Source of the DNA: Candidatus Nomurabacteria bacterium
GTDB taxonomy: Bacteria > Patescibacteriota > Minisyncoccia > Phycocordibacterales > UBA9973
Direction: 5' to 3'
DNA length: 64,000 bases
NCBI GenBank assembly: GCA_026395995.1
Contig: JAPLXQ010000010.1
Location: forward strand, 2,587-66,586
A model generated the notes under the pieces. The model saw only the letters and a program-made list of their open reading frames with translations. It made no database searches and was not told where the DNA came from. Both the position numbers and the translations under genes were made by a program. Positions 2,091-22,038 of this stretch are shown here, one piece after another (position 1 is the stretch's first letter; each line of letters begins with the position of its first letter).

Positions 2091-2993
2091 TTATAAATTA
2101 ATTTGATGATAATTACAGAAGTGCGCACTTCTGCCGTTTACTATTTTTCTTATTATAGCACCACTGCACCCTTTTTTTCTACATTTTTCGCCAGTACGGC
2201 GATAAGCTTCGTGATGAAGCTGGAATGATCCTTTTTGACCATAAATATTCAGGTAGTCCGACATTGAGTCACCACCAAAATTAATTCCTTTTTTTAGTAA
2301 TTCTTGTGTAGCAGAAAAAATTTCTTGAAATTTTTTCTGCGGAATGTTTTTAATGAGTGTTTCAGGATGTAGACCGACTCGCCAAAGGATTTCATCAGAA
2401 TAAATATTGCCAATACCGGCGAGTATGCTCGGATTCATTAAAACTGTTTTAATCTTTCCATTTGGTTTTAAGATTAGACGTTCTTTTAATTTTTGCCAAG
2501 TAAAAGTTTTGTCGAGTGGTTCTGGTCCAATATTTTCTAGATGTTTTGTATTGTTTCGTGTCTCAGTATCGAGTAATGTTATTTTTCCGAATTTTCTGAC
2601 ATCTGAAAAGGCAAGATAGTAACCATTTGATAAAGTAAAAATTACATGAATAAAACGTCCAGTTTTTTGTTTTTGGTAAAATAAGCAGCCGGTCATTTTC
2701 ATGTGAATGAGTATAGTACTTTTTCTCCCCCTGTCTGAGGGGGAGTGGCCAGAGGCCGAGGGGGTGGGAGCAGATAAATTAATCAAAATATTTTTTGCAC
2801 GTCGTTCTACTGACAAGATTTTTTTACCAATAACTTCTTTTTTGAAATAGATAAAATACTTTGGATTTTTTACCGCATCTTTTTGACGCTGATCTTTGCT
2901 ATTTAAATCAGTCCAAACGTCCTTTATTTTGAGCCCTACAATTTCTTTTTGTAGTCCTCTAGTTGTCGTCTCTACTTCTGGTAGCTCAGGCAT
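2091..2993 (-). CDS. mutM: Formamidopyrimidine-DNA glycosylase (Fpg/MutM) with an in-frame GC-rich insertion
   Basis: N-terminal MPELPEVE catalytic Pro/Glu, C-terminal zinc finger CxxC...CxxC; insertion encoding SAPTPSASGHSPSDRGRKS at 2724-2772. Confidence 0.85.
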   Translation of the reverse strand: MPELPEVETTTRGLQKEIVGLKIKDVWTDLNSKDQRQKDAVKNPKYFIYFKKEVIGKKILSVERRAKNILINLSAPTPSASGHSPSDRGRKSTILIHMKMTGCLFYQKQKTGRFIHVIFTLSNGYYLAFSDVRKFGKITLLDTETRNNTKHLENIGPEPLDKTFTWQKLKERLILKPNGKIKTVLMNPSILAGIGNIYSDEILWRVGLHPETLIKNIPQKKFQEIFSATQELLKKGINFGGDSMSDYLNIYGQKGSFQLHHEAYRRTGEKCRKKGCSGAIIRKIVNGRSAHFCNYHQINL

Positions 2994-3018
2994 GCTATGA
3001 TTATACTACATTTAATTT

Positions 3019-3894
3019 ATGACTAAATTTATTAGTACATTTTTAATAGCTTTTATTTGTGCCACACTCGGTGTGGCACCACTTTCTGCTATCGCTAAGA
3101 CTGGTGCAAGTAAGACTCAAGCTGAAGCTATAAAACCTGTACGTATTTTGATAGTTCCAGGGCATGACGATGAAGTCTGGGGTGCTCAATATAAAAATAT
3201 GAAAGAAGCTAGTATGACTTTGGCCTTAGGAACACAGATTTATAATTTATTAAAAAAAGACAAAAGATTTGAAGTTTATATCACACGTAATGGTAATGGA
3301 TACACAAAAGATTTTGCCGATTATTTCACGAATCATATGGATGAAATAAAATCTTTTAAACAGATAGCAAAGACACAAATGGCTGGCCAGCTGGCAGCAG
3401 GATTATTTGTTCAGAAAAAAAATACACCACATGCTTCCGTCAAAGAAATTGTAGCAGATAGACTTTATGGTTTGAATAAGTGGGCGAATGAAAATAATAT
3501 CGATGCGATGATTCATATTCACTTTGATGATTATCCACGTCCTCATGCTTGGACAATAGGTGATTATAAAGGTTTTGCTATTTATATGCCTGAGTCACAA
3601 TTCCCTAATGCAGCAAATAGTGCACTTCTTGCTGGTAATATTTTTGCGCAATTAGAAAAAAAATATATTACTAGTACTTATCCAGAAGAGAAAGGGGGAT
3701 TGATACCAGATCAAAAACTTATTGCCCTAGGAGCCAACGACACACTTTTACCCAGCACTCGTAGTGTCTTGGTAGAATACGGATATATTTATCAAAAAAT
3801 ATTCCGAAATAGCACCACTCGCCATCAGGCTTATAAAACCATGGCTGATCTAACTGTAAAAGGAATTATTAATTATTTCTTCCCGAAGAAGTAA
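3019..3894 (+). CDS. Secreted N-acetylmuramoyl-L-alanine amidase-like (Amidase_3 family) protein
   Basis: Signal peptide; PGHDDE...IHIHFDD...GFAIYMPE blocks resemble Amidase_3 (CwlD-like). Confidence 0.45.
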   Translation: MTKFISTFLIAFICATLGVAPLSAIAKTGASKTQAEAIKPVRILIVPGHDDEVWGAQYKNMKEASMTLALGTQIYNLLKKDKRFEVYITRNGNGYTKDFADYFTNHMDEIKSFKQIAKTQMAGQLAAGLFVQKKNTPHASVKEIVADRLYGLNKWANENNIDAMIHIHFDDYPRPHAWTIGDYKGFAIYMPESQFPNAANSALLAGNIFAQLEKKYITSTYPEEKGGLIPDQKLIALGANDTLLPSTRSVLVEYGYIYQKIFRNSTTRHQAYKTMADLTVKGIINYFFPKK

Positions 3895-3932
3895 GTTTGA
3901 CGTCTTATCTATATAAGTATATTATTGGTGTA

Positions 3933-4112
3933 TGGATGATGACAAAGCAAAAATTAAAGAAGAAATGGAACATATTCAAGGTATTTATGAGCTTTCTTTA
4001 GAAGATTCAAAAAAATATGAAGAAAGAAATAAAAATTTAATAAAAGATTTTAAAAAAGATGATAATAACGAAAAGATAGCAAATATAAGATCAAAATTAT
4101 TAATTTAAATTA
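3933..4112 (+). CDS. Small K/E-rich hypothetical protein (59 aa, below ORF-track cutoff)
   Basis: ATG at 3933 to TAA at 4110; composition similar to downstream 4120-4827 ORF. Confidence 0.2.
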
Positions 4113-4119
4113 AATATAT

Positions 4120-4827
4120 ATGAACGAAAATAAAACAATGGAAGACTCAAAAGAAGAAGCTCTAAAAATTAGAGAAAATACAAAACATACTCAAGAAAAT
4201 TTCCGTGCAATGTCTGCAGAAGATAGAAGTAAAACCGAGAATTTTTATTTCGGTTCTGAAATATATAATTTAAGTGTTGGCGATTTTGAAAAAGTAAAAC
4301 AAGATTCTGTAAATCTGATCCTCGCCAGTGAATCACAGAGTAGAGAAATTCAAGTGAAAAGCTTTAATTCTTTAAAAGAAAAAGGGTATCCTGAAGAAAA
4401 ATTAGGTGATTTAGGGAAAAAACTGGATTCTTCCTATGAAGAATATACAAAGACTATTGCGGGAAGAATCGATGATATTAAAAATATTCAGCTAAAAAGA
4501 GAAGAAAAAATAACTGCCAATTCGGTGGAAAATTCAGAGCATCCTGAAGTTAAAATACACCAAGAAGAAAGAGCTGAATTTAAAGAAAAACTAGCCGATA
4601 TGTTTAATAAAATGGATAATTCTGAAAATACAGATTTATTCTATCAAAGATTAGATGGTGTTTTAGATCAAGCTTCAAAGAATAAAGATTCTGATACATT
4701 GATTTATTTAAGACATCTTTCTAGTGAAAGAATGAATTCTTTAAAAGAAAGCAACAATGAAGAAGAAATAAATAAACTTTATTCATTTAATAAAAAACTT
4801 CAATCTTTTGAGGAACAAATAAAATAA
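4120..4827 (+). CDS. Hypothetical charged/coiled-coil protein
   Basis: ORF track; no recognisable motif. Confidence 0.4.
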   Translation: MNENKTMEDSKEEALKIRENTKHTQENFRAMSAEDRSKTENFYFGSEIYNLSVGDFEKVKQDSVNLILASESQSREIQVKSFNSLKEKGYPEEKLGDLGKKLDSSYEEYTKTIAGRIDDIKNIQLKREEKITANSVENSEHPEVKIHQEERAEFKEKLADMFNKMDNSENTDLFYQRLDGVLDQASKNKDSDTLIYLRHLSSERMNSLKESNNEEEINKLYSFNKKLQSFEEQIK

Positions 4828-4897
4828 AAATTATTTCCCTCCTAAATTCTTAAACGCTTCTTTTATTTTTGCATTAGTGTCGACAGCAGTGACATTT

Positions 4898-5656
4898 GAA
4901 TTACAAGGTCGAACCTTGTAAAAACTTTATTATATTGTTATCATGCATATATGACTAGAAGTATAGAATTTTCTATTGGTGAATTTTATCATCTCTATAA
5001 TAGAGGTACTGAAAAGAGAATCATTTTTAATAATAAAAATGATTATGAAAGATTCACTCTTCTTCTATATTTATGTAATAGCCTGAACAAAGTAGATTTA
5101 GGTGACTACCTAAGACAAGGTCGAACCTTGTTAGAACTTTTTGATTTAGAAAGAAATAACACCTTGGTTGATATCGGTGCATATTGTTTAATGCCAAATC
5201 ATTTCCATATTTTAGTTAAGGAAAAATTAGAGGGAGGAATTAGTTTATTTATGCAAAAACTAACAACAGCATATACTATGTATTTTAATAAAAAATATAA
5301 TCGTACAGGTACCTTATTTCAAGGGAAATTTAAAGGCAAACATGTAATAGGTTACAATTATTTAAAATATTTATTTGCATATATTGGATTAAACCCTATT
5401 AAATTAATAGATAAAAATTGGAAAGAAAATGGAATAAAAAATTTATTGGAAGCAAAAAACTTTTTAAGTAAATATGAATTTTCTAGTTTTGTAGATTTTT
5501 GTGATATATCAAGAAAACAAAAAGTTATTTTAGTGCTGGATAATTTTCCAAAATACTTTCTTTCTAAAAAAGAATTTAATGATTTTATAAATGACTGGTT
5601 GGATTATAGAGAACTAGAATTTTAGTATTTTTTATTTTCCACCAAGAATTTTTAAT
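4898..5656 (+). mobile_element. Insertion carrying a RAYT/IS200-like HUH transposase, bounded by a 42-bp exact (ca. 65-bp degenerate) direct repeat that duplicates the ruvA 3' end
   Basis: Repeat gcttcttttatttttgcattagtgtcgacagcagtgacattt at 4856-4897 and 5657-5698; subterminal hairpin acaaggtcgaaccttgt at 4905-4921. Confidence 0.6.
4951..5625 (+). CDS. HUH (Y1) tyrosine transposase, IS200/IS605 TnpA / REP-associated tyrosine transposase (RAYT)-like
   Basis: YHLYNRG...LMPNHFHILV (HuH) ...YIGLNPIK (cf. RayT DYIYINPVKHG); paralog of 21346-22011. Confidence 0.7.
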   Translation: MTRSIEFSIGEFYHLYNRGTEKRIIFNNKNDYERFTLLLYLCNSLNKVDLGDYLRQGRTLLELFDLERNNTLVDIGAYCLMPNHFHILVKEKLEGGISLFMQKLTTAYTMYFNKKYNRTGTLFQGKFKGKHVIGYNYLKYLFAYIGLNPIKLIDKNWKENGIKNLLEAKNFLSKYEFSSFVDFCDISRKQKVILVLDNFPKYFLSKKEFNDFINDWLDYRELEF

Positions 5657-6204
5657 GCTTCTTTTATTTTTGCATTAGTGTCGACAGCAGTGACATTTTT
5701 CAATGCATCACGAGCTTCATTTTGAGAGTAGCCGAGAGATTTGAGGGCTTCGAGTGCATCCATTTCTTCTTTGAGTGCTCCACCTGTCTTTTCATCTTTA
5801 AATTTGTCTCGAAGTTCGATGACAATTTTTTCGGCGGTTTTTCTACCAATACCAGAAATTTTTGTGAGATAAGAAATATCATTTGTACCGATGGCTTGGC
5901 GGAGAGTCTCAATAGAAGCGACACTCAAAATACCCAAAGCTCCTTTTGGTCCAATACCTGAGACACTGATCAGCATTTCAAAAAATTCCAATTCTTCTCT
6001 GTCGAGGAAACCATAAAGATCGAGGGCGTCTTCGCGGACGATGGTGTGAATCCAAAGAAAGATTTCATCAGACCTCACCCCCTGCCCCCTCTCCTGAAAG
6101 GAGAGGGGTTTATGGATATGTATCTTATAACCGACCCCGTTTGCTTCCACAATAATGAATTTGTCTGTTTTGAGTATTGTTTTGCCTTTTATGCTTCCAA
6201 TCAT
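5632..6204 (-). CDS. ruvA: Holliday junction DNA helicase RuvA, with in-frame GC-rich insertion
   Basis: MIGSIKGK...ANGVGYKI N-terminus, HhH motifs GIGPKGALGIL / GIGRKTAEKI; insertion at 6071-6111 (QERGQGVRS). Confidence 0.85.
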   Translation of the reverse strand: MIGSIKGKTILKTDKFIIVEANGVGYKIHIHKPLSFQERGQGVRSDEIFLWIHTIVREDALDLYGFLDREELEFFEMLISVSGIGPKGALGILSVASIETLRQAIGTNDISYLTKISGIGRKTAEKIVIELRDKFKDEKTGGALKEEMDALEALKSLGYSQNEARDALKNVTAVDTNAKIKEALKILGGK

Positions 6205-6311
6205 GATTTTAGTATAACATATTTATTTTCTCCCACTTTATAAGGGGGGGGTGGCTGAAAGCCGAGGGGGTCATTTGCATTTTTTCTATATTTCTGTTAT
6301 GTTATACGTAT

Positions 6312-6563
6312 ATGCCAATAACAAAATCAGCTGAAAAAGCAATGCGTGGATCCCTTCGAAAGAAGGCTATTAATGACCGCCGAAAACGTGCCGTTAAAGA
6401 AGAAATTAAAAAGATATTAAAAGTTGTAAAGACTGATAAAACATCTATAGTAAAAATGCTTCCAACTGCTTTTCAAGCAATTGATAAAGCTGCTAAGAGT
6501 GGAGTTATCAAGAAAAATACTGCAGCTCGCAGAAAATCTCGTTTAGCAAGATTAACAAAATAA
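6312..6563 (+). CDS. rpsT: 30S ribosomal protein S20
   Basis: MPITKSAEKAMRGSLRKKAINDRRKRAVK typical S20. Confidence 0.85.
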   Translation: MPITKSAEKAMRGSLRKKAINDRRKRAVKEEIKKILKVVKTDKTSIVKMLPTAFQAIDKAAKSGVIKKNTAARRKSRLARLTK

Positions 6564-6565
6564 AT

Positions 6566-6596
6566 AAAAAAAGAAGTCGAAAGACTTCTTTTTTTA
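6566..6596 (+). terminator. Rho-independent terminator after rpsT
   Basis: gaagtcgaaagacttc hairpin followed by T-run. Confidence 0.6.
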
Positions 6597-6611
6597 TTGT
6601 ATAATGGACGT

Positions 6612-6893
6612 ATGAATCATTTATTAGAATTTTATGGAACTGAATGCCCACATTGCGTGAGTATGCACGAGCTTGTGGAAAAATTAGAAAAAGAAGAGGG
6701 TATAAAAGTGGAATCAATCGAGTGTTGGCACAACGAAGAAAATGCTAAAAGATTGGAAGAACTCGATAAAGATATGTGTGGAGGTGTACCATTTTTTTAC
6801 AATACTCAAACTAAGAAATTTATTTGTGGAGATGCCAATTATGGAATATTGAAAGCTTGGGCCAAAGGAGAACCTTTTACTCAAGACGAATAA
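6612..6893 (+). CDS. Thioredoxin-fold protein (glutaredoxin/thioredoxin-like, CPHC active site)
   Basis: FYGTECPHC motif near N-terminus; small size. Confidence 0.5.
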   Translation: MNHLLEFYGTECPHCVSMHELVEKLEKEEGIKVESIECWHNEENAKRLEELDKDMCGGVPFFYNTQTKKFICGDANYGILKAWAKGEPFTQDE

Positions 6894-6936
6894 TTTTTCC
6901 TTTCAATTTATCTAAAAATAAGCTAGTATAGGCCTT

Positions 6937-8412
6937 ATGTCAGCAGAAACAATCGTTCGATTCGATCAAGTGTTTTTTGAACACAGTATAAACAAACCAA
7001 TCCTCGAAGAGGTCTCTTTTTCTATTCGTCGTGGTTCAAAATTTACTTTGATGGGCCAGAATGGTGCCGGTAAAAGTACAATCTTTTCTTTAATCACTGG
7101 CGAGAAAAAACCAGAAGAGGGAATCATTAATGTTATGAATGGTGTGACGATAGCCTTGTCTAGGCAGGTTATTCCACGAGCTGATTTGGAACTCACAGTG
7201 AGAGAATTTTTTGAAAAATGTTTCGCTAAAAAGGTTTATGATATCGATGTAAAAATTGATGATATTTTGGAAGTGGTAAATTTGAAAGGTCATGAGAAAG
7301 TTCACGATCGAATAATCAAAACTTTTTCTGGTGGGCAACAAGCACGTTTACTCTTGGCCAGTGCACTTATTCAAAGTCCAGATTTACTTTTGCTTGATGA
7401 GCCGACAAACAATCTCGATAAGGCTGGTATTGCACACCTGACAGAATTTCTACGAAACTACAAAAAAACAGTCATCGTCATTTCCCACGATGCGGAATTC
7501 CTGAATGCTTTTACTGAAGGAGTTTTTTATTTAGATATTCATACGCGAAAAGTGGAGCAATATGTCGGTAACTATTTCAACGTGGTGAAAGATATCAAAG
7601 CTCGTATTGAAAGAGAAAATATGAAAAATGCTCAACTTGAAAAAACTATTCAAGCCAAGAAAGACCAAGCCAATGTCTTCGCTCACAAAGGGGGACGTCT
7701 ACGTCTCGTAGCTCGTCGTATGCGTGAACTCGCTGAAGATTTGGAAGAAGACATTGTGGATGTCCGCAAAGAAGATAAGGCTATTCGTCCATTTATTATC
7801 CCTGCCCAGCAAGATATGATCGGAGAGATAATAAACATTTCTGCTTACACTACGCTCAATCCAAAAACTCATAAAATAGTAAAACATAAAGCTCATATTT
7901 CTTTAAATAAAAATCAGCACTTGCTTTTGAAAGGTCCAAATGGAATTGGAAAAAGTACATTACTGGAAAGCTTGGCTAGTGGCCATGCCGAAGGTACAAA
8001 TATTAAAGAGGGAATCCGTATCGGATATTATCGCCAAGATTTTTCTACTTTGAATTTTGATCACACTGTCTATGAATCTTTGGCTTCAGCGATGGCTATC
8101 GGTGGAGAACGCCTTGATGAAGAGCGTATGCGCTCGATAGCTGCGAGTTTTCAAATTACTGGAGAATTTATCCGTACAAAAATCGGCAGTCTGTCTGAGG
8201 GGCAAAAAGGTCTCGTCGCCTTTGCTCGTCTCGTAATGGAAAAACCAGGGCTCCTCATTCTCGACGAGCCGACAAACCATATCAACTTCCGTCATTTGCC
8301 TGTAATTGCAAAAGCTCTCGATGAATACAAAGGCGCGATGATCCTCGTATCTCACGTTCAAGAATTCGTAGACCAAATTAGGATAGATGAAATTTTAGAT
8401 TTGGAGAAATAG
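6937..8412 (+). CDS. ABC-F family ATPase (tandem ABC domains, no TMD)
   Basis: Two Walker A (GQNGAGKST, GPNGIGKST), two signature motifs (SGGQQARLLLA, SEGQKGLVAFA), Walker B LLLDEPTN/LILDEPTN. Confidence 0.8.
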   Translation: MSAETIVRFDQVFFEHSINKPILEEVSFSIRRGSKFTLMGQNGAGKSTIFSLITGEKKPEEGIINVMNGVTIALSRQVIPRADLELTVREFFEKCFAKKVYDIDVKIDDILEVVNLKGHEKVHDRIIKTFSGGQQARLLLASALIQSPDLLLLDEPTNNLDKAGIAHLTEFLRNYKKTVIVISHDAEFLNAFTEGVFYLDIHTRKVEQYVGNYFNVVKDIKARIERENMKNAQLEKTIQAKKDQANVFAHKGGRLRLVARRMRELAEDLEEDIVDVRKEDKAIRPFIIPAQQDMIGEIINISAYTTLNPKTHKIVKHKAHISLNKNQHLLLKGPNGIGKSTLLESLASGHAEGTNIKEGIRIGYYRQDFSTLNFDHTVYESLASAMAIGGERLDEERMRSIAASFQITGEFIRTKIGSLSEGQKGLVAFARLVMEKPGLLILDEPTNHINFRHLPVIAKALDEYKGAMILVSHVQEFVDQIRIDEILDLEK

Positions 8413-20259: not shown

Positions 20260-20634
20260 ATGGAAAAAATTAATTTTGAAGATTTTAAAAAAGTTGATAT
20301 TGCAGTGGGGCAGATTTTATCTGCAGAAAAAGTTCCAGAGACAGATAAGCTTTTAAAATTGTCTGTAGACCTAGGTTCTTTCTTTGTTGAAAATGCAGAA
20401 GGAGAGAAGGAGGAGAAAAAAGATATTCGCCAAATCGTTTCTGGTATCTCACTTTATTTTCCTGATCATTCTGTACTCGTCGGCAAGAAATGTATGTTTG
20501 TCACAAACCTCGAACCTCGTATGATCAAAGGTCTTGAAAGTCAGGGGATGATACTCGCAGTTTCTACTGAAGACGGAAAATTTTCTTTACTTGAACCAAA
20601 CGCTGATATTCCTGCGGGAACTAGAGCAAAATAA
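20260..20634 (+). CDS. tRNA-binding domain protein (CsaA/Trbp111-like)
   Basis: FKKVDIAVGQILSAEKVPETDKLLKLSVDLG typical tRNA_bind (EMAP) domain. Confidence 0.7.
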   Translation: MEKINFEDFKKVDIAVGQILSAEKVPETDKLLKLSVDLGSFFVENAEGEKEEKKDIRQIVSGISLYFPDHSVLVGKKCMFVTNLEPRMIKGLESQGMILAVSTEDGKFSLLEPNADIPAGTRAK

Positions 20635-21283: not shown

Positions 21284-22038
21284 AAACCGCATGAGGGTAG
21301 TCCTCATGCGGTTTTCATTAATATTGAATGTGATATACTTTTAACATGGAACGAAAAGTAAAATTTTCAATAAATGAATATTACCATTTGTACAGTCGAG
21401 GTGTTGAAAAAAGAAAAGTTTTTCTTGACCCAAAAGACCACAAAAGATTTATGGCACTTCTATATATAATGAACAATTCTGAACCTTTTACTTTTGGTAA
21501 TTTTTTAAAACATAATAAGATTGAAGATATTTTCTCTAAAGAAAAAGAAAAAACACTAGTTTCTATTGTAAGTTATACTCTTATGCCAAACCATTTTCAT
21601 TTATTGGTCTATGAAAATGAAGAAGGAGGAATAAGTAAATTTATGAGTCGATTGCTGACTGCGTATTCGATGTATTTTAATACTAAATATAAAAGAAGTG
21701 GTCCTTTATTTGTGCACCCATTTCGTTCTGAACATATTTCAAATGAGTCACAGTATTTATGGATTTTTTCATACATCCATTTAAATCCTATTGGAATTAT
21801 AAAAAAAGACTTTAAAACCAAAGGATTCGGTAATAAAAAAATAGCTCAAAATTTTTTAAAATTATATCAATACTCTAGTTATTATGAATACGAAGGTGGT
21901 AATCGTATTGAATCAAAAATCCTTGACCTTTCTTTGGTACCAGAATATTTACCAAAAATCTCTTTTGATGTTGGAAAATATGAAAAATGGTTTAAAACAG
22001 AAGAAGAGTAACCGCATGAGGGTAGTCCTCATGCGGTT
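21284..22038 (+). mobile_element. RAYT/IS200-like HUH transposase gene bracketed by identical 28-bp hairpin repeats
   Basis: aaccgcatgagggtagtcctcatgcggtt at 21285-21313 and 22010-22038 (palindromic ccgcatgagg/cctcatgcgg). Confidence 0.65.
21346..22011 (+). CDS. HUH (Y1) tyrosine transposase, IS200/IS605 TnpA / RAYT-like (paralog)
   Basis: YHLYSRG...LMPNHFHLLV...SYIHLNPIG; ~45% identical to 4951-5625 product. Confidence 0.7.
   Translation: MERKVKFSINEYYHLYSRGVEKRKVFLDPKDHKRFMALLYIMNNSEPFTFGNFLKHNKIEDIFSKEKEKTLVSIVSYTLMPNHFHLLVYENEEGGISKFMSRLLTAYSMYFNTKYKRSGPLFVHPFRSEHISNESQYLWIFSYIHLNPIGIIKKDFKTKGFGNKKIAQNFLKLYQYSSYYEYEGGNRIESKILDLSLVPEYLPKISFDVGKYEKWFKTEEE

Follow-up and report, generated by a model that had tools for sequence, protein, structure and literature searches.

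Transposases of the Y1 type are thought to move either as insertion sequences of the IS200/IS605 kind, which leave no duplication of their target, or as domesticated REP-associated tyrosine transposases (RAYTs), which mobilise only repetitive extragenic palindromes (REPs). In other HUH elements (IS91, ISCR and Helitrons), which have Y2 or Rep-helicase enzymes, rolling-circle replication and ori and ter ends, one-ended processing causes the element to carry or juxtapose pieces of neighbouring genes, and a piece of a neighbouring gene likewise accompanies the element described here. A nick-site hairpin that lies inside the gene of its own initiator protein is known from phage and plasmid replication origins (phiX174 gene A and pT181 repC). 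We analysed a stretch of 64,000 nucleotides of a Candidatus Nomurabacteria genome (contig JAPLXQ010000010.1 of assembly GCA_026395995.1, positions 2,587 to 66,586; from here on the window), in which the gene of a RAYT-like Y1 transposase, tnpA-1, is located between an orphan 3' end of ruvA and an intact ruvA gene. The two ruvA tails are diverged alleles, the same anatomy was found at three other loci of the transposase family, and in most loci of that family a third copy of the flanking hairpin lies in frame within the gene.

TnpA-1 is a member of the Y1 HUH superfamily that resembles RAYTs and lies outside the curated RAYT equivalog. It matched the Pfam family Y1_Tnp (PF01797) with an E-value of 3.7e-8 and 34 bits (cut-off 23), and in the alignment of the family (alignment A1) the HUH motif NHFHIL is located at residues 83-88, with H86 invariant and H84 present in at least 90% of the sequences, while Y140 and Y144 are invariant and are followed by LNP. 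An AlphaFold2 model (predicted local distance difference test score 84.5) had the TnpA_REP structure of E. coli (4ER8) as its best PDB match in Foldseek, followed by the TnpA structures of IS608, IS200 and ISDra2 (Foldseek probability 1.0); a sequence-only profile search of the PDB with TnpA-1 gave no match. The sole NCBIfam match was REP_Tyr_transpos (NF047646), at 34.7 bits and thus far below the cut-off of 80.

The comparison with REPtron/RAYT systems (e.g. that of E. coli) shows both likeness and difference. The locus shares with them a Y1 HUH enzyme, for which these systems supply the best structural match and the sole NCBIfam match, as well as family genes that are bordered by the same palindrome on both sides (although tnpA-1 itself has the left hairpin only) and copies that are diverged and single or few per genome, the closest relatives being found at a conserved genomic position. 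It differs in the low NCBIfam score, in an extra C-terminal region of some 80 aa in TnpA-1, and in that no dispersed REPs were found in the 64 kb, no GTAG-type tetranucleotide was seen and a third hairpin is found inside the gene in 59% of the loci. With IS200/IS605 elements (e.g. IS608 and ISDra2, which move by single-strand 'peel and paste') the element has in common the catalytic fold, the subterminal hairpin ends and the absence of a short target-site duplication. In contrast to these elements, however, there are no identical multiple copies, the only other family member in the window being 44.6% identical, and whereas a canonical insertion leaves a contiguous target on both sides, here an orphan is found on one side and an intact, diverged allele on the other. 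The initial annotation of this stretch, made from the sequence alone, had also judged the structure to be unlike a canonical IS200/IS605 insertion, and our comparison supports that view.

At the centre of the locus is a 67-nt direct repeat (4831-4897 and 5632-5698, 88% identical, start-to-start spacing 801), within which 42 nt are identical in both copies (4856-4897 and 5657-5698); none of 100 shuffled sequences gave a match of this kind. All eight mismatches fall within the 25 nt beside the stop codon, and this extension is 68% identical. The exact repeat, an extension of about 70% identity and a bracketed segment of 759 bp (4898-5656) holding an HUH Y1 transposase gene had all been reported in the initial annotation, and all three were confirmed. 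The 42-mer was found at no third place in the 64 kb and is not a widespread intergenic repeat. The downstream copy is the real 3' end of ruvA (5632-6204, minus strand), the encoded protein ending in KIKEALKILGGK, while the upstream copy on the minus strand encodes NVTAVDTNAKIKEAFKNLGGK followed by a stop codon, but lacks a start codon and has in-frame stops upstream, and is therefore an orphan. Translation and domain content thus agree with how the two copies had been assigned from the sequence.

The two tails differ in seven codons, five of them synonymously. At the eight differing positions the orphan agrees six times with the functional ruvA of a distant relative (L087), while the functional tail agrees six times with that of L086 and five times with that of L081. 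In element-free relatives the 42-nt block is retained at 41 (L081), 38 and 35 of its 42 positions, so that its identity in the window needs no special 'core'. This pattern of differences identifies the orphan and the functional tail as two diverged ruvA alleles, each of which evolved under purifying selection. The 67-nt repeat is neither a target-site duplication nor an att pair. A target-site duplication is identical at birth and diverges neutrally thereafter, and this is not what we found: the differences are biased towards synonymous ones, clustered, and common to functional alleles elsewhere. A practical lesson is that 'duplications' beside transposase genes of this type are to be read as pairs of alleles and not as target-site duplications.

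What the locus looks like without the element could be seen in relatives. The closest RuvA (P0123) was found on four contigs (L081-L084), the DNA of which is 95-96% identical to window positions 2446-3894 and 5632-7235, with no sequence between these two parts. There, the stop codon of an N-acetylmuramoyl-L-alanine amidase gene abuts that of the convergent ruvA gene (TAA/TTA, in a junction that reads ...AAATTAA followed by TTATTTTCC...), and the two stops also abut in the more distant L086 and L087 (RuvA identities of 83% and 77%, respectively). Comparison with these empty sites shows that positions 3895-5631 of the window are a derived 1,737-bp insertion between the abutting stops of the amidase gene and ruvA. 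The duplicated block was not found without the transposase at the ruvA loci of these relatives. The insertion consists of 37 nt, ORF58, ORF235 (two open reading frames, ORFs), 3 nt, the orphan ruvA tail, GAA, the hairpin, tnpA-1 and 6 nt, in this order, and has a GC content of 22-32%, compared to 33-44% outside. Because of the repeat it can also be read in a second way, as 936 bp of ORFs between the stops and 801 bp (hairpin-tnpA-tail) inside ruvA at codon -22. The unit of the 801-bp type at the ruvA 3' end that was proposed initially is thus only one of two decompositions, while the relatives point to 1,737 bp including the two ORFs.

The divergence from the nearest relative is 2.6% farther upstream on the amidase side and about 1.8% beyond the ruvA tract, and rises towards the insertion on both sides (Table 1). 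This rise shows that the insertion together with some 150 nt of the amidase gene and some 200 nt of ruvA, the functional tail included, forms a tract of separate and more diverged ancestry. Since the functional tail lies inside this same tract, its collinearity with relatives cannot reveal which of the two tails is 'native'. The left half of the structure was recovered independently: Logan contigs (k=31), two of which carry ORF235, reproduce the order amidase-ORF58-ORF235-orphan at 100% identity and end at window position 4885 with the final 31-mer ahead of the shared 42-mer, an end that the repeat, if present in the reads, would produce. A metagenome scan for the left-end junction (GAATT plus hairpin) gave 0 hits. 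Neither ORF58 nor ORF235 had a match in Pfam, NCBIfam or PHROGs, and for ORF235 no homolog but itself was found among 5.8 billion proteins, hence no donor context.

Another important finding was that the anatomy of the window locus (orphan gene fragment, hairpin end, element, intact diverged allele) recurs. Including the window we found four cases in about 140 loci, and these involve different genes, repeats of 46-604 nt and 5' as well as 3' gene ends. In L005 a prepilin-peptidase-like gene is involved: 604 nt of its 5' part are repeated at 89% identity, and the codon differences between the two copies are synonymous in 44 cases and non-synonymous in 11. Here the orphan is cut off right at the left hairpin foot, and the intact gene starts 26 nt past the right hairpin. 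In L071 the repeated part is a gene tail of 46 nt with five differences, all synonymous; 1-3 nt separate the orphan from the left hairpin, and the stop of the intact gene lies 19 nt past the right one. In L092 a gene tail is repeated as well, the C-terminus of the encoded protein being transketolase-like (as judged by eye); the intact gene enters the left hairpin and has its stop in the loop, and the orphan tail, with a terminator of its own, starts 12 nt past the right hairpin and differs synonymously in five of six differing codons within the first 50 nt. The distance from the orphan's end to the foot of the left hairpin is 0-3 nt in the window, L005 and L071, and in all four loci the repeated segment is bounded on one side by the end of a gene, and the orphan abuts a hairpin end where it is truncated. 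Three loci have the orphan on the left of the element and one has it on the right, hence there is no fixed polarity, and no common motif was found at the four informative junctions (e.g. ending in ACATTT, GTGCT and GATGT). For IS200/IS605 elements, by comparison, insertion takes place 3' of a fixed tetra- or pentanucleotide. L092 came from a nucleotide search of 64 metagenome loci; a translated search for more diverged orphans among the first 81 loci gave no convincing case beyond L005 and L071. The four loci with an element between diverged alleles point to spread by recombination between strains, with the host gene kept intact. This bears on how mobile DNA survives in the tiny, gene-dense genomes of Patescibacteria, where there is hardly any intergenic space.

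The recurrence of the junction at the hairpin foot implicates the end of the element, and the divergence of the alleles implicates DNA from two lineages. We therefore give about even chances to an origin by exchange of DNA between strains, with one joint at the hairpin end and a second one that relied on homology within the gene common to both strains. Cutting and joining of single-stranded DNA at hairpin ends has been established for IS608 and TnpA_REP (PMC8266576). One joint would have been made at the hairpin end of the element, where Y1 transposases cut and join single-stranded DNA, and the other side would have been resolved via homologous recombination within the shared gene. The outcome would be a small partial merodiploid with an intact allele and an orphan fragment, which would be harmless and so survive. 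This could have happened in two ways. In variant M, the donor would have carried the element harmlessly just beyond ruvA, and the element would have entered together with the 3' part of the donor ruvA, its far end being joined to codon -22 of the resident gene; a plausible target would be the single strand that is displaced in a recombination D-loop (displacement loop), and the ruvA sequence ending in ...GTGACATTT is a candidate strand-transfer target for TnpA. In variant M', the donor ruvA would have been disrupted by the element, and the orphan would have travelled with the element to a site beside the intact resident ruvA. The finished haplotype would later have been moved between strains by an ordinary double crossover in the amidase gene and ruvA. 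Variant M is favoured a priori, because harmless donors should be common and any breakpoint would be viable; M' would need one event fewer for the window, where the ORFs, the orphan and tnpA-1 form a single low-GC block.

Several points weigh against exchange between strains as the origin. Neither a donor nor an intermediate haplotype was found, which leaves the order and direction of events (M or M') to inference, and both variants need at least two events at the ruvA locus. The role of TnpA in the joint is deduced from the position of the hairpin foot, there being no cleavage motif common to the four junctions. The cases number only four among about 140 loci, and the right half of the window structure (orphan-hairpin-tnpA-ruvA) comes from a single metagenome-assembled contig. 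Finally, the 42-nt block of identity is explained by local conservation alone (41/42 in L081), although a boundary of recombination or gene conversion there is possible.

Retention of an intact and an interrupted gene copy has a parallel in natural transformation. Johnston et al. 2013 (PMC3784515) describe that transformation of S. pneumoniae with lethal cassettes gives merodiploids with an intact and an inactivated copy of an essential target gene. The one-sided homology anchor and the retention of both gene copies are shared by our loci with such transformation merodiploids and with homology-facilitated illegitimate recombination. However, the duplications in those merodiploids are 100-900 kb long and form between insertion sequence repeats, compared to 46-604 nt here, and in our loci the non-homologous joint is located at a Y1 hairpin end and the copies are alleles of different lineages. 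Compared with IS91, ISCR and Helitrons, there is no evidence of rolling-circle replication here, and the orphan lies on the left in three loci and on the right in one. Taken further, the findings could describe a Patescibacteria-wide RAYT-like family with an in-frame hairpin that co-evolves with the flanking pair (the residue pairs Q-L, E-F, R-S and I-Y being dictated by palindromy), and with a one-ended, homology-assisted spread between strains in which the hairpin end is joined into exposed single-stranded DNA, the gene is kept intact and an orphan is left; we consider this combined picture speculative and, as a whole, unlikely. If true, it would be a new mode of movement of HUH elements, coupled to DNA uptake and recombination.

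Among the rival explanations, the one to which the initial annotation inclined was an integrative, att-type insertion, in which an 801-bp unit (4898-5698) with its own ruvA tail would have integrated via a conserved core in an attP x attB-like reaction. The geometry fits, with an exact 42-nt block, similar tails on one side of it and no similarity on the other, and the gene remains intact. Yet no integrase was found (ORF58 and ORF235 are without a family match), and to our knowledge Y1 enzymes do not act by att-type site-specific integration. The relatives lack 1,737 bp at this site and not 801 bp, they have the 42-nt block conserved without the element, and the three analogous loci concern other genes and both gene ends, with repeats of very different length and without a block of identity; moreover, the closest relatives of tnpA-1 lie near dnaJ and not near ruvA. 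Site-specific integration is therefore very unlikely. That the element 'carries a replacement tail', as was also suggested, is possible. Islands and phages that integrate at gene 3' ends similarly leave the target gene intact with a displaced partial copy at the far side of the insert, but they depend on an integrase (tyrosine or serine) and on an att core that is fixed in a single target gene, and both are absent here. Integration of a circle through the ruvA tail, of the Campbell type, would put ORF58-ORF235 between tnpA-1 and the intact ruvA; the order differs and this candidate was rejected. The initial annotation had further taken the duplication as made at insertion, and a duplication in situ (by a long target-site duplication, by slippage or by template switching at a hairpin) with later decay of the orphan would suit a direct repeat that exactly flanks the element, the more so since hairpins can stall replication. 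But random decay of a non-coding copy predicts neither a synonymous bias nor clustering nor shared variants, and we observed all three: the differences are mostly synonymous in each of the four loci (in L005, 44 of 55 codons), those in the window are clustered in 25 of the 67 nt, and six of the eight orphan variants are present in the functional ruvA of another genome. The tails being diverged alleles, this explanation is largely refuted and scarcely tenable. A further candidate, in which the element entered one of two tandem copies that already existed, was also discarded, the rest of the interrupted copy not being found across the element.

The structures could also be unrelated scars in which the transposase had no part, produced by illegitimate recombination or by independent insertions and deletions at a recombination hot spot between convergent genes, with a ruvA fragment left by chance beside a passively carried tnpA gene. 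The locus is clearly mosaic and has two further ORFan genes in the block, there is no right hairpin, and the junction on that side is located 6 nt past the tnpA-1 stop and not at an end of the element, all of which is in line with this explanation. Chance, however, would not place the truncated end of the orphan at a hairpin foot (within 0-12 nt) in four independent loci, and we consider unrelated scars unlikely, though deserving of some weight. The contig could also be a chimera of co-occurring strains, assembled through the 42-nt repeat: the source is a metagenome bin, and the break of the k=31 contigs at the repeat means that the reads hold two contexts of the 42-mer. Nevertheless, the junction of the 42-nt block with the GAATT-hairpin sequence must exist in some molecule, so that a ruvA fragment beside the hairpin is real, the three analogous loci come from unrelated assemblies, and the left half was reproduced independently at full identity. 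An assembly artefact is extremely unlikely.

The most unexpected result, which deserves a follow-up of its own, is the co-varying hairpin inside the gene. In the window, the palindrome ACAAGGTCGAACCTTGT was found at only two places, in the left hairpin (4903-4919, with a 9-bp stem at 4901-4921) and within tnpA-1 at 5115-5131; that the hairpin recurs inside the gene had been recognised before, but at 5108-5126, which is incorrect. Folding as single-stranded DNA gave -7.3 kcal/mol (z -5.0) for the left and -5.6 kcal/mol (z -3.0) for the internal hairpin. In 77 of 131 distinct loci of the family (59%), nucleotides 121-240 of the gene share an exact match of at least 12 nt with the flanking hairpins of their own locus, compared to 4.4% when genes were matched with the flanks of other loci and to one of 131 for nucleotides 241-360. 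The median longest match between gene and flank over all 131 loci is 17 nt, and the internal match is located about 160 nt from the ATG in every case (range 127-175). The internal hairpin is an in-frame palindrome with its centre on a glycine codon, for instance CAA GGT nnn ACC TTG (encoding QGxTL), GAA GGG CGG TCC TTC (EGRSF), CGA GGT TCA ACC TCG (RGSTS) and ATA GGC CTC GCC TAT (IGLAY). In an ungapped alignment of the 77 sequences, 86.8% of the cells pair and 170 double-sided changes are present, compared to 53 in shuffles; the pairing breaks down when the partner column is shifted. These sequences had been chosen for having a stem of 6 bp or more, and the unbiased figure is therefore the 59%.

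The three hairpins, of which one is coding, thus change their sequence together. Such co-variation requires either that one sequence-specific factor, presumably TnpA, recognises all three hairpins, or that gene conversion is frequent. In the window the similarity between the left and the internal copy extends 14 nt past the stem (4903-4933 and 5115-5145, 31 nt at 87%), which hints at gene conversion. The internal hairpin is a clear case of nucleic-acid structure constraining protein sequence, and it offers an experimental handle on recognition by the enzyme (binding, cleavage, autoregulation). As in phiX174 gene A and pT181 repC, a recognition hairpin lies within the gene for the protein that presumably recognises it; unlike in those systems, the internal hairpin of tnpA has two flanking twins. 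In the REPtron/RAYT literature searched we found no description of a REP inside a RAYT gene, or of this family of Patescibacteria.

For the survey of the family, 80 genome loci and 80 metagenome loci were fetched. In about four fifths of the loci the same short palindrome is present on both sides of the gene, often with inverted loops, and stems of at least 6 bp on both sides were found in 108 loci. The foot of the left hairpin lies at a median of 27.5 nt before the ATG and that of the right hairpin at a median of 11 nt past the stop, an arrangement that is REPtron-like. No right hairpin was found by folding after the stop of tnpA-1, where the ruvA stop follows after 6 nt, and because of this absence the window copy is probably stranded and no longer a canonical mobile unit. 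A dispersed REP population was not found in the 64-kb window, where each hairpin type occurs only at its own gene, and no conserved cleavage, guide or GTAG-type tetranucleotide motif was seen beside the hairpins when these were aligned on their centres and inspected by eye. A comparison of the DNA of 81 loci, from a collection with one genome per species, did not define the ends of the element, the only alike pair being the same genome twice.

Relatives of TnpA-1 are numerous. A word-indexed search gave more than 7,000 proteins, those with a name being nearly all from Patescibacteria, and an exhaustive search at the level of 50%-identity clusters gave 311 with an E-value of at most 1e-30 and 4,464 with an E-value of at most 1e-10. 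The entry identical to TnpA-1 is from a Candidatus Nomurabacteria metagenome-assembled genome; an exact look-up of the window TnpA in the contig index gave no record. The closest relatives (L002, L003, L171 and L172; 69-74% identical) are located downstream of dnaJ in four other genomes, and in view of this conserved position the copy at ruvA looks like an immigrant extra copy. The gene order in these four is dnaJ, a small ORF (tRNA_bind in L172), tnpA and another gene, a synteny that suggests the long-term vertical residence typical of domesticated RAYTs. The coordinates of the features discussed are given in Table 1.

Table 1. Features of the window around tnpA-1 and ruvA, and the second tnpA gene, in window coordinates
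Feature	Position	Strand	Evidence or remark
N-acetylmuramoyl-L-alanine amidase gene	3019..3894	+	Pfam Amidase_3; collinear with L081-L084 up to 3894
Amidase 3' end with raised divergence	3746..3894		19/149 mismatches to nearest relative, mostly synonymous
Strain-specific 1,737-bp insertion, compared with the empty site of relatives	3895..5631		blastn against L081-L084, junction sequences, composition
ORF58, K/E-rich, without family match	3932..4108	+	ORF list, profile searches
ORF235, ORFan	4120..4827	+	Homolog search, profile searches
Orphan 3' end of a ruvA allele, 22 codons and stop (NVTAVDTNAKIKEAFKNLGGK)	4831..4897	-	Cut off 3 nt short of the left hairpin foot
Upstream copy of the 42-nt exact repeat	4856..4897		Sequence search
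Left hairpin TTACAAGGT-CGA-ACCTTGTAA, core 4903-4919	4901..4921		29 nt before the tnpA-1 ATG; family-canonical position
tnpA-1, RAYT-like Y1 HUH transposase, 224 aa	4951..5625	+	Pfam, alignment, AlphaFold2/Foldseek
Internal in-frame hairpin copy, encodes RQGRTL	5115..5131		Family-wide third hairpin
Functional ruvA tail, second copy of the 67-nt repeat, exact part 5657-5698	5632..5698	-	Starts 6 nt past the tnpA-1 stop
ruvA 3' part with raised divergence	5632..5831		14/200 mismatches to nearest relative
Intact ruvA	5632..6204	-	RuvA_N, HHH_5 and RuvA_C domains (Pfam)
tnpA-2, second canonical paralog, 221 aa	21346..22011		44.6% identical to tnpA-1

The second paralog of the window, tnpA-2, has identical hairpins on both sides (21289-21309 and 22014-22034, with stems of 13-14 bp) and no internal hairpin. 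It is found downstream of an ORF (20260-20634) that resembles a tRNA-binding domain, as assigned by eye.

We also observed several features beside the hairpins of other family members. In six loci (L010, L017, L040, L048, L075 and L080) one to three extra, locus-specific copies of the hairpin are found within about 1.5 kb of tnpA, which would amount to a limited REP-like spread. A perfect DnaA-box-like motif, (A)GTTATCCACA, is located directly past a flanking hairpin in L004, L006, L010, L017, L019, L020, L056, L097 and L164/L166; DnaA boxes have been mentioned in relation to the C-terminal domains of one TnpA_REP subclass (Quentin et al. 2018). In L117, L121 (the same as L039) and L135 both sides of tnpA carry the hairpin along with an extended -10-like promoter sequence (TGTGGTATAAT), suggesting that the element may supply a promoter to the downstream gene. 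Some homologs in alignment A1 (e.g. P0005, P0009 and P0043) have terminal extensions, like ...DKVRPCQ and ...QKVGPS, that are translated flanking hairpins, the gene calls running into the palindromes.

Palindromic sequence was also found in and beside ruvA itself. At window positions 6063-6112 the gene contains an in-frame, GC-rich palindromic segment (...CACCCCCTGCCCCCTCTCCTGAAAGGAGAGGGG..., encoding HKPLSFQERGQGVRSDE), which stands in place of an AT-rich loop segment in the nearest relatives L081, L086 and L087. The far more distant ruvA of L088 carries this GC-rich segment at the corresponding position. The segment has the look of a palindromic mini-element located in frame within a gene, similar to the palindromic elements of Rickettsia. 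An Rfam search of positions 3000-7500 gave only sub-threshold chance matches. Between ruvA and rpsT, in an otherwise AT-rich region, a GC-rich hairpin (GGGGGGGGTGGCTGAAAGCCGAGGGGG, 6228-6275) is found that is conserved in L081 and L086.

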